From assembly GCF_017348835.2 (NCBI RefSeq), contig NZ_CP071375.1: a stretch of DNA of 64,000 nucleotides; one strand, 5' to 3'. Positions within the stretch are counted from its first letter, which is position 1; each line of letters begins with the position of its first letter. Both the position numbers and the translations under genes were made by a program. Below, in pieces: positions 1-1,489 of the stretch. The stretch comes from Escherichia coli. GTDB taxonomy: Bacteria; Pseudomonadota; Gammaproteobacteria; Enterobacterales; Enterobacteriaceae. Below the pieces are notes generated by a model. That model did not search any database. It was not told where the DNA came from and saw only the letters and a program-made list of their open reading frames with translations.

Positions 1-1107
1 AGAGAGTTTATAATTTTCTAGTCGTGCAGTATAGTTACCATTAAAATTGATTTCATGATTTCCAGCCAGAACGATGACATTTTTATTAATACAGCTATCT
101 TTATTACCCTCCATATTTCGCATAGAATTTAGCAAAGTAAGGATATATTTATCACCAAAAATAGTACTAAATCTATCGCCTGTATGATCCCCAAGGAAGA
201 TACAAGGGGTTATCGCATCGTCCTTTAAAAAAACATGTTGATGCAACTCATTCAATATCATGTCTCTCGTATTTAATAAATTGTAGAGCAATTTATTATT
301 TTTATGTATGTATGCAGATGAAGCCATGTCTTCGTGTTTTAATAATTCACATAATAAACTCCAACCCTTTTCCCTGATGCCTATATGCCCTGAAACGAGC
401 AATGCATAAAGTACAGCGCCTACTCTTCCATCTGTATCGCCAAAATAAGCCGTGTTGGCATTTTGTGGGTTAATCACACCACACTGTTTATAAAAGTCTA
501 TTTTAGAAAACACAGATTTAACATAGCTATCAAACTTATCCTTAGGAAACGTCTCTTTAGAGACATCCCAACGCCAGTCAGCTTTAAAATTACCGCTAAG
601 AAGAGTAAAGAAATTTTCAGGTATGATAGAAAGCCCATTAACTTTATAAATTATGTCTGATTTATAAATTATGTCTGATTTATCTCCGGAGAAATTAATA
701 AAATAATAACCATCCTTACACTCAATCTTAACTGTAATGGGAGACGATAATTTTATCACATGGTTATTGTCTGGTATAATTGTAAAGATAAACGTGTTAG
801 TAGTATTATCGGCGAAACTATTATATTCTTGAATATCTATAGATGGCTCACTATTGTAAAACCATATTTTCTCCATCTGAAGACTATGTTCATTTACCCT
901 CCAGTGACCATGTTGCAGGAAATAGATGATATTCAGGCCTAAATCGTTATCTATTTGCGAAAAGTCATTCAGCATATTAACTTCAACTGTGTTTGATCGA
1001 TATTTTTTATCAACCTTGCCATGGTGTTGATGACTGTTAACTTTATCTGAATGCTTATCTTGATGGCTTGAAGAGATGTGCTTAAATATATTTTGAAATA
1101 CTTTCAT
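1..1107 (-). CDS. AT-rich hypothetical protein, 3' end beyond window start (yhiL-like position; possible degenerate metallophosphoesterase motifs)
   Basis: Hand translation of the reverse complement from ATG at 1107 (MKVFQNIFKHISSSHQDKH...) stays open to position 1 in one frame; absent from the ORF track presumably because no stop lies in the window. Upstream of and divergent from yhiM. Contains LGDHTGDR and AGNHE motifs near the visible end. Confidence 0.55.
   Translation of the reverse strand, partial: MKVFQNIFKHISSSHQDKHSDKVNSHQHHGKVDKKYRSNTVEVNMLNDFSQIDNDLGLNIIYFLQHGHWRVNEHSLQMEKIWFYNSEPSIDIQEYNSFADNTTNTFIFTIIPDNNHVIKLSSPITVKIECKDGYYFINFSGDKSDIIYKSDIIYKVNGLSIIPENFFTLLSGNFKADWRWDVSKETFPKDKFDSYVKSVFSKIDFYKQCGVINPQNANTAYFGDTDGRVGAVLYALLVSGHIGIREKGWSLLCELLKHEDMASSAYIHKNNKLLYNLLNTRDMILNELHQHVFLKDDAITPCIFLGDHTGDRFSTIFGDKYILTLLNSMRNMEGNKDSCINKNVIVLAGNHEINFNGNYTARLENYKLS
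643..678. repeat. perfect 18-bp tandem duplication (tttataaattatgtctga x2) inside the yhiL-like ORF, in frame (SDIIYK x2)
   Basis: Read directly: two identical adjacent 18-mers at 643-660 and 661-678; length is a multiple of 3 and in register with the minus-strand frame from 1107. Confidence 0.85.
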
Positions 1108-1489
1108 AAATAACCTGCAATATTTATAACTTGTTAGTAACAAAATAAATGATACATGTCTGAAAGACATATTTACGACGATACAAAGTAATAATACTTA
1201 TATATTCGATGATTTTACGCACCGAGACTATCCGGTCTTTTACTAAATAAAGGAAAACAATCCATCCCTGGAAGATAATTGTAAAAAAAAACAGAATAAG
1301 AATTAATCTTAGGATAAATATTTATTTATCATGGCCTTTTAACCGCTAAAAAATGGCACTCGGCACAGTAAACCCCGCTATAGTTATGCTATGCATTTGT
1401 CTTTAATGATATCTCGTCGTTATATTAATAGGCTGAAATTATCATTAATGCACATTTCAATATTAGCAGGGATACCTGAGGAGTTTAAA

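Follow-up and report, generated by a model that had tools for sequence, protein, structure and literature searches.

A divergent PPP-type metallophosphoesterase domain predicted in YhiL, and an in-frame 18-bp duplication carried by a minority of Escherichia coli yhiL alleles

The first 1,107 nucleotides of a 64,000-nucleotide stretch of the Escherichia coli contig NZ_CP071375.1 (hereafter the window) carry the 5' part of yhiL on the minus strand. Both yhiL and its neighbor yhiJ are E. coli genes so far without an assigned function. We propose, with a probability of roughly 60%, that YhiL is a two-domain protein whose DUF4049 domain is a divergent metallophosphoesterase of the PPP type, nearest to WipA and WipB of Legionella pneumophila, and that the allele shared with E. 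coli PE164 encodes it intact. A metal-dependent protein phosphatase is our best guess at its predicted function, and the placement of the fold beside WipA and WipB turns this guess into a concrete hypothesis that can be tested cheaply. The same reading frame contains a perfect 18-bp tandem duplication, which is an established minority allele of the gene.

Identity and domain architecture of YhiL

An earlier note on this DNA, made by hand translation, had described an open frame of at least 369 codons running from ATG 1107 off the start of the window. This was borne out when positions 1–1107 were reverse-complemented and translated by machine, which gave 369 codons that are stop-free to the window start and that include SDIIYKSDIIYK, LGDHTGDR, and AGNHE. 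The G+C content of this segment is 32.7%. Positions 1–1400 are 100% identical to the corresponding sequence of E. coli PE164 (NZ_CP114128.1), a pig isolate from Nanjing. In PE164 the frame is complete and reaches its stop after 535 amino acids (WP_053883603.1, locus LZG51_RS01225, annotated "DUF4049 domain-containing protein"), and therefore the stop codon or frameshift that hand translation might have missed is not there. Gene order is the same in PE164 and K-12 (rbbA-yhiI-yhiY-yhiJ-yhiL-yhiM-yhiN-pitA-uspB-uspA), with the frame at the orthologous position between yhiM and yhiJ. The frame is thus an intact orthologue of yhiL, a gene that is already annotated. In agreement with the note, the K-12 counterpart (b4660) is annotated as a pseudogene. 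The frame was indeed missing from the list of open reading frames (ORFs) supplied with the window, but this is an edge artefact and not biology, because the ORF tool skips ORFs that leave the source.

The Pfam check for DUF4049 that the note had proposed returned a strong match of YhiL residues 215–532 to DUF4049 (PF13258; E 2e-159, 530 bits with the cut-off at 25, profile positions 1–333 of 333). An N-terminal DUF6860 domain precedes it; AlphaFold models this domain poorly, a large part falling below pLDDT 50. Residues 1 to ~56 form a predicted disordered stretch rich in Ser, His, and Lys. The tandem paralogue yhiJ (b3488) encodes a protein 35% identical to YhiL over 379 residues. It shares the DUF4049 domain and the catalytic motifs (GDTDG, GDQTGDR, and GNHE) but differs from YhiL in its N-terminal region, which has no DUF6860 match, and in a longer C-terminal tail; in K-12, YhiJ is intact whereas yhiL is a pseudogene. 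The family is very narrow. A word-indexed search for homologues, run once with the protein and once with a domain profile, returned almost solely E. coli, Shigella, and E. albertii sequences and did not reach WipA-like families. Searching 1.84 billion cluster representatives exhaustively gave 52 matches, almost all of them fragments of Escherichia YhiL or YhiJ. Only two of these, P0140 (720 amino acids) and P0171 (446 amino acids), fall outside the named Escherichia clusters. The latter is the most distant DUF4049 relative, with the motifs GDADG, GDILHDR, and GNHD. Scans against NCBIfam and PADLOC gave no matches, so that no defense-system assignment is possible.

Predicted fold and catalytic motifs

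When the full YhiL model was searched against the PDB with Foldseek, the best matches were WipB (5nny, E 1e-5) and WipA (5n6x, E 2e-5), followed by ApaH and PP5. The earlier note had seen a loose resemblance to metallophosphoesterases and had held that the idea would fall if the full-length protein gave no phosphoesterase-fold match. The Foldseek result points the other way, and the predicted model has the two-sheet beta-sandwich of the phosphoesterase fold. Structural comparison gave the highest scores for WipA (13.3, 227 residues aligned), WipB (13.3, 231 residues), and a cold-active tyrosine phosphatase from Shewanella (12.4, 191 residues), followed by ApaH (10.8, 176 residues), PP5 (10.4, 177 residues), calcineurin and PP1 (about 10, 179–184 residues), and lambda phosphatase (8.0, 158 residues).

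The sequence motifs are set out in Table 1. Motif II is one residue longer than the canonical GDxxDR, an oddity remarked on in the earlier note; the extra residue is real, and the resulting spacing is that of WipA and WipB. WipA has a PPP fold with a motif II of the form D180...D184 R185 and a helical hairpin between motifs I and II (PMC5454105), and WipB has a PPP fold with the motif II GDELVDR (D118...D122 R123; PMC5572681). Besides the motif II insertion, YhiL shares with these two L. pneumophila effectors a motif III of the GNHE/NHx type, and a helical insert between motifs I and II is also predicted in YhiL. There are also differences. YhiL is 15–17% identical to WipA and WipB, without a significant sequence match, its motif I is GDTDG where theirs is DxH, its helical insert falls far short of the WipA hairpin, which measures 85 angstroms, and it has the additional DUF6860 domain at its N-terminus. 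Moreover, WipA and WipB are translocated effectors, whereas YhiL is not known to be translocated and does not occur in a Dot/Icm organism. The Shewanella protein-tyrosine phosphatase (1V73) is 14% identical to YhiL and lacks both the helical insert and the N-terminal domain. In the classical PPPs (PP5, PP1, calcineurin, lambda phosphatase, and ApaH), the motif I residue that is Asp in YhiL is His, and motif II is one residue shorter. They have roughly 25–30 residues between motifs I and II, compared with ~80 in YhiL.

Residue conservation extends beyond motifs I–III. Every full-length relative retains H395 (in SHHG) and H492 (in GHxG), and these two, together with the conserved positions of motifs I–III, R470-P471, and N511, are kept down to relatives of 24–26% identity. 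In weak profile alignments, GNHE aligns with the GNHE of PP5, Mre11, and MPPED2, the gap in the alignment to PP5 falls precisely at the extra residue of motif II, and H395 stands against the LHQGI of Mre11. The D-x-H pattern of motif I (GDxHG) is not present, the first Asp being kept and the His replaced by Asp226. Because Asp226 is invariant in the family, it may mark a metal site that has been conserved, perhaps in altered form, and not one that has been lost.

From the fold and the residue conservation found here we infer the ligand assignment, the activity, and the substrate. The DUF4049 domain would most likely bind two metal ions, one through D224, D226, and D307 and the other through D307, N350, H395, and H492. 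It would hydrolyze phosphomonoesters on proteins, either phosphoserine and phosphothreonine or phosphotyrosine. With WipA and WipB as a guide, H351 would donate the proton and D311-R312 would position the phosphate.

Table 1. Features of the window bearing on yhiL. Positions are those of the window; residue numbers (aa) are those of the 535-residue YhiL.
Feature	Position	Strand	Basis
yhiL 5' part, codons 1–369 of 535; remainder past the window start	1..1107	-	Stop-free translation; identity to PE164
DUF6860 (PF21661), N-terminal, aa 41–170, holds the duplication	598..987	-	Pfam, E 9e-65
Perfect in-frame 18-bp tandem duplication, units 661–678 and 643–660, SDIIYK twice (aa 144–155)	643..678	-	Tandem Repeats Finder; single copy in K-12
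ATAAA microhomology directly upstream of the first unit, same as the last 5 nt of either unit	679..683	-	Direct sequence reading; array extends to 683
DUF4049 catalytic domain (predicted), start; aa 215–369 in the window, extends to aa 532 outside	1..465	-	Pfam
Motif I, GDTDG, aa 223–227	427..441	-	GDxDG kept in all aligned relatives, including P0140 and P0171
Two long predicted helices between motifs I and II, aa 246–267 and 271–289	240..372	-	Secondary structure in both AlphaFold models
Motif II, GDHTGDR, aa 306–312, Asp-to-Asp i+4	172..192	-	G306, D307, D311, and R312 conserved
Motif III, GNHE, aa 349–352	52..63	-	G349, H351, and E352 invariant; N350 is Asp only in P0140
yhiL-yhiM divergent intergenic region, AT-rich, with the yhiL promoter region	1108..1489		RefSeq yhiM start at 1490

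Several observations weigh against the phosphatase assignment. The YhiL structure is a prediction with low-confidence loops, made from a shallow alignment (6–12 sequences) because the family is so narrow. The Pfam Metallophos profile (PF00149) covers only the region of motifs II–IV (residues 303–409) and falls short of its gathering score, reaching 18.1 bits (E 0.004) where 21.5 are required, so that the resemblance claimed in the earlier note stands for the fold and the motif pattern but not for this profile. YhiL has no match to the WipA_Phos profile (PF21663), to which YhiJ gives 14 bits (E 0.034), below the cut-off of 27. A sequence search of the PDB with the single protein found no match, and profile searches reached PP5, Mre11, and MPPED2 at E ~0.1 or weaker. 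The motif I Asp of YhiL occupies the position of His32 in WipA. Since the H32A mutation abolishes WipA activity (PMC5454105), YhiL may use other metals or another substrate, or it may be inactive. The gene is also under weak constraint, as judged by the substitution ratios and recurring pseudogenes described below. Finally, the literature searched yielded no experimental report of YhiL or YhiJ activity and no mention of DUF4049, PF13258, or DUF6860.

Decay and constraint in yhiL

The yhiL locus is present in 4195 of 5426 complete E. coli genomes, and ~23% of the genomes have no match at all. The earlier note had considered an intact copy to be of interest in view of the K-12 pseudogene. However, the annotations of E. 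coli C41(DE3), a B-lineage strain, and of O157:H7 show yhiL as intact, and the protein clusters of 529–535 amino acids have hundreds to thousands of member sequences, making an intact allele common and not noteworthy in itself. Inactivated alleles are also found. The K-12 lesion is a frameshift from A8 to A7 at nucleotide 1190; apart from this and one substitution, the K-12 gene is the same as the intact 535-residue allele of C41(DE3). A stop at codon 362 interrupts yhiL in ABWA45 and O104:H4, and one at codon 42 does so in 2011C-3911. Among three intact alleles, the ratio of nonsynonymous to synonymous substitution rates (dN/dS) is 0.5–0.6; in one pair, the catalytic segment taken by itself reaches 0.94. 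The synonymous rate (dS) is ~0.15 overall compared with 0.26–0.36 in the C-terminal third. This third of the gene is mosaic and strongly diverged, and a second in-frame 18-bp indel lies near its 3' end (L001 5500–5700), where a six-residue insert is present in K-12, B, and ABWA45 and absent from PE164. Because pseudogenes have arisen recurrently and independently and dN/dS is 0.5–0.6, yhiL is, on this comparison of alleles, dispensable and weakly constrained, having been inactivated independently in several lineages. Together with yhiJ it lies in an AT-rich block of roughly 3.9 kb (30–40% G+C compared with 53–60% in the flanks) that was probably acquired horizontally. In K-12, both the coding region of yhiL and the spacer between yhiL and yhiM are counted among the H-NS-bound "promoter islands" (PMC3661553).

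These data raise the question of whether yhiL is an evolutionary relic, that is, an open but decaying frame silenced by H-NS, with a useless product and a duplication that is just another neutral lesion. The inactivating mutations in other lineages, of which there are at least three independent ones, the dN/dS values, and the ~23% of genomes without a match would all fit. So would the location in an AT-rich promoter island bound by H-NS. In addition, a 20-kb deletion that takes out yhiJ-yhiS was viable in laboratory evolution (PMC11633386). Nevertheless, 535 codons have stayed open across many deep lineages (B strains, O157:H7, Shigella, and PE164), overall dN/dS is below 1, and both observed indels are in frame. 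The putative catalytic residues, moreover, are all invariant, even in proteins of 24–33% identity outside E. coli. We therefore regard a relic as unlikely.

Substrate and cellular role

If the DUF4049 domain is an active metallophosphoesterase, its substrates could instead be small molecules or nucleic acids, for example cyclic nucleotides, the dinucleoside polyphosphates on which ApaH acts, or RNA and DNA ends like those processed by PnkP and Mre11. Mre11 and SbcD are among the weak profile matches, yhiJ and yhiL are listed among SOS genes with weak and late induction (PMC11002266), and the His-to-Asp change in motif I sets the family apart from the classical protein phosphatases. On the other hand, the three top structural matches (WipA, WipB, and the Shewanella tyrosine phosphatase) are all protein phosphatases and align over 191–231 residues compared with 176 for ApaH, and WipA and WipB are characterized by both the longer motif II and a helical insert. 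Nor was a convincing LexA box found near yhiL, near-matches being at chance level (2 found, 3.4 expected). A substrate other than protein thus seems improbable to us, and a protein phosphatase remains the preferred reading.

The distant relative P0171 is encoded on an assembled contig (L008 1-9341, Logan SRR7686997 contig) next to genes for a CesT-family chaperone, a eukaryote-type kinase with a Pkinase domain, and a 2276-residue protein with an OTU domain. This neighborhood does no more than hint at an effector-like ancestry. A more speculative reading, which we consider a long shot, is that YhiL and YhiJ form the Escherichia branch of a WipA/WipB-like phosphatase lineage with an Asp-for-His variant of the active site, and that they would be active protein phosphatases, possibly tyrosine-directed, and either delivered to other cells or used to counter a bacterial or phage kinase. 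If this were true, diversifying selection and not decay would account for allelic diversity such as the mosaic C-terminus and the SDIIYK insertion in what would be an N-terminal targeting domain. That YhiL and YhiJ are themselves exported, effector-like phosphatases acting on another cell, with the disordered N-terminus and DUF6860 serving secretion or targeting, is very improbable: the closest solved structures are indeed translocated Legionella effectors, P0171 has the neighbors just described, the first ~56 residues have the composition noted above, and the genes lie in an acquired AT-rich block, yet their position on the chromosome is fixed, also in strains such as K-12 and B that have no working type III or type IV effector system, the PE164 locus has no adjacent gene for a secretion chaperone or apparatus, YhiL has no evident signal peptide (the hydrophobic extension upstream of its start is not kept as coding), and the literature searched contained no experimental report of export.

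The 18-bp tandem duplication

Tandem Repeats Finder reported a single array at positions 643–683 with a period of 18, 2.3 copies, and 100% matches, confirming the perfect 18-bp duplication of the earlier note and the in-frame second SDIIYK that it encodes. On the coding strand the region reads GGAGATAAA, TCAGACATAATTTATAAA, TCAGACATAATTTATAAA, and GTT in succession. A perfect 36-bp tandem within 64 kb is far above chance expectation. Comparison with K-12 and other single-copy alleles indicates that the duplication is a real 18-bp insertion polymorphism. The K-12 gene is nearly equal in length to that of PE164, as if it too were duplicated, but the alignment shows a single copy, and the near-equal length is a coincidence due to the second 18-bp indel near the 3' end.

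The recent replication slippage that the earlier note had supposed is not supported. With a 44-bp query that requires the repeat junction, 310 of the 5426 complete E. coli genomes matched, 19 identically and 291 with one mismatch. In the alleles that were read (ABWA45, O104:H4-type, and Shigella sonnei cluster P0001), this mismatch changes the second SDIIYK to SDITYK, so that the two copies differ. A comparison of repeat copy number across strains, as the note had suggested, separated the one-copy and two-copy alleles cleanly. Using a 120-bp query across the repeat, 308 genomes matched at 90% identity or above, and all sampled rows spanned the full 120 bp, as expected for two copies; 3866 genomes matched below 90%, and nearly all sampled rows spanned 100–102 bp, as expected for one copy, a single sampled row in this group being merely a partial match. 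Carriers came from many countries and from varied sources that included pigs, humans, poultry such as chickens, cattle, wastewater, and a giant panda. The duplication is therefore an established minority allele, present in ~7% of the genomes that have the gene.

The sequence around the repeat suggests how it arose. In K-12, where the unit is single, both ATAAA repeats are likewise found at a distance of 18 bp, and slipped-strand mispairing between them would generate the duplication, with the ATAAA at positions 679–683 as the likely anchor. The duplication lengthens the N-terminal domain by six residues and persists in the population as a minority allele. It is a population variant with no evident consequence.

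Start codon, promoter region, and neighboring genes

An in-frame ATG at window positions 1168–1170 on the minus strand would add a 21-codon hydrophobic extension (MSFRHVSFILLLTS...) to YhiL and is chosen by many automatic gene callers. This candidate start was rejected: the codon is CTG in K-12 and C41, and in ABWA45-type alleles it is out of frame with a stop. Because ATG 1170 is not kept as coding across alleles, ATG 1107 is taken as the conserved start, and the extension is probably not coding. No sigma-70 consensus site turned up when the minus strand ahead of ATG 1107 was scanned for promoters. Within the yhiL-yhiM spacer, the sequence TTGTAAAAAAAAACAG at window positions 1279–1294 differs by one mismatch from the CTGT-N8-ACAG core of the LexA box, a near-match that is not above chance.

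Other features of the locus concern the genes on either side. For yhiM, on the plus strand, the mechanical ORF runs from ATG 1391 to 2542 (383 amino acids), while RefSeq has the gene at 1490–2542 (350 amino acids); the longer ORF runs into the AT-rich divergent promoter region. In E. albertii, a 430-residue protein (P0122) is of the YhiL type from its N-terminus to about residue 265, where it passes directly into a YhiJ-type C-terminus. This hybrid therefore points to a deletion between the tandem paralogues in which motifs II and III were lost. In ABWA45 (L002 1037-2265 and 6206-7402), an IS2 element between yhiJ and yhiL truncates yhiJ, and a pco copper-resistance cluster lies just past yhiM.
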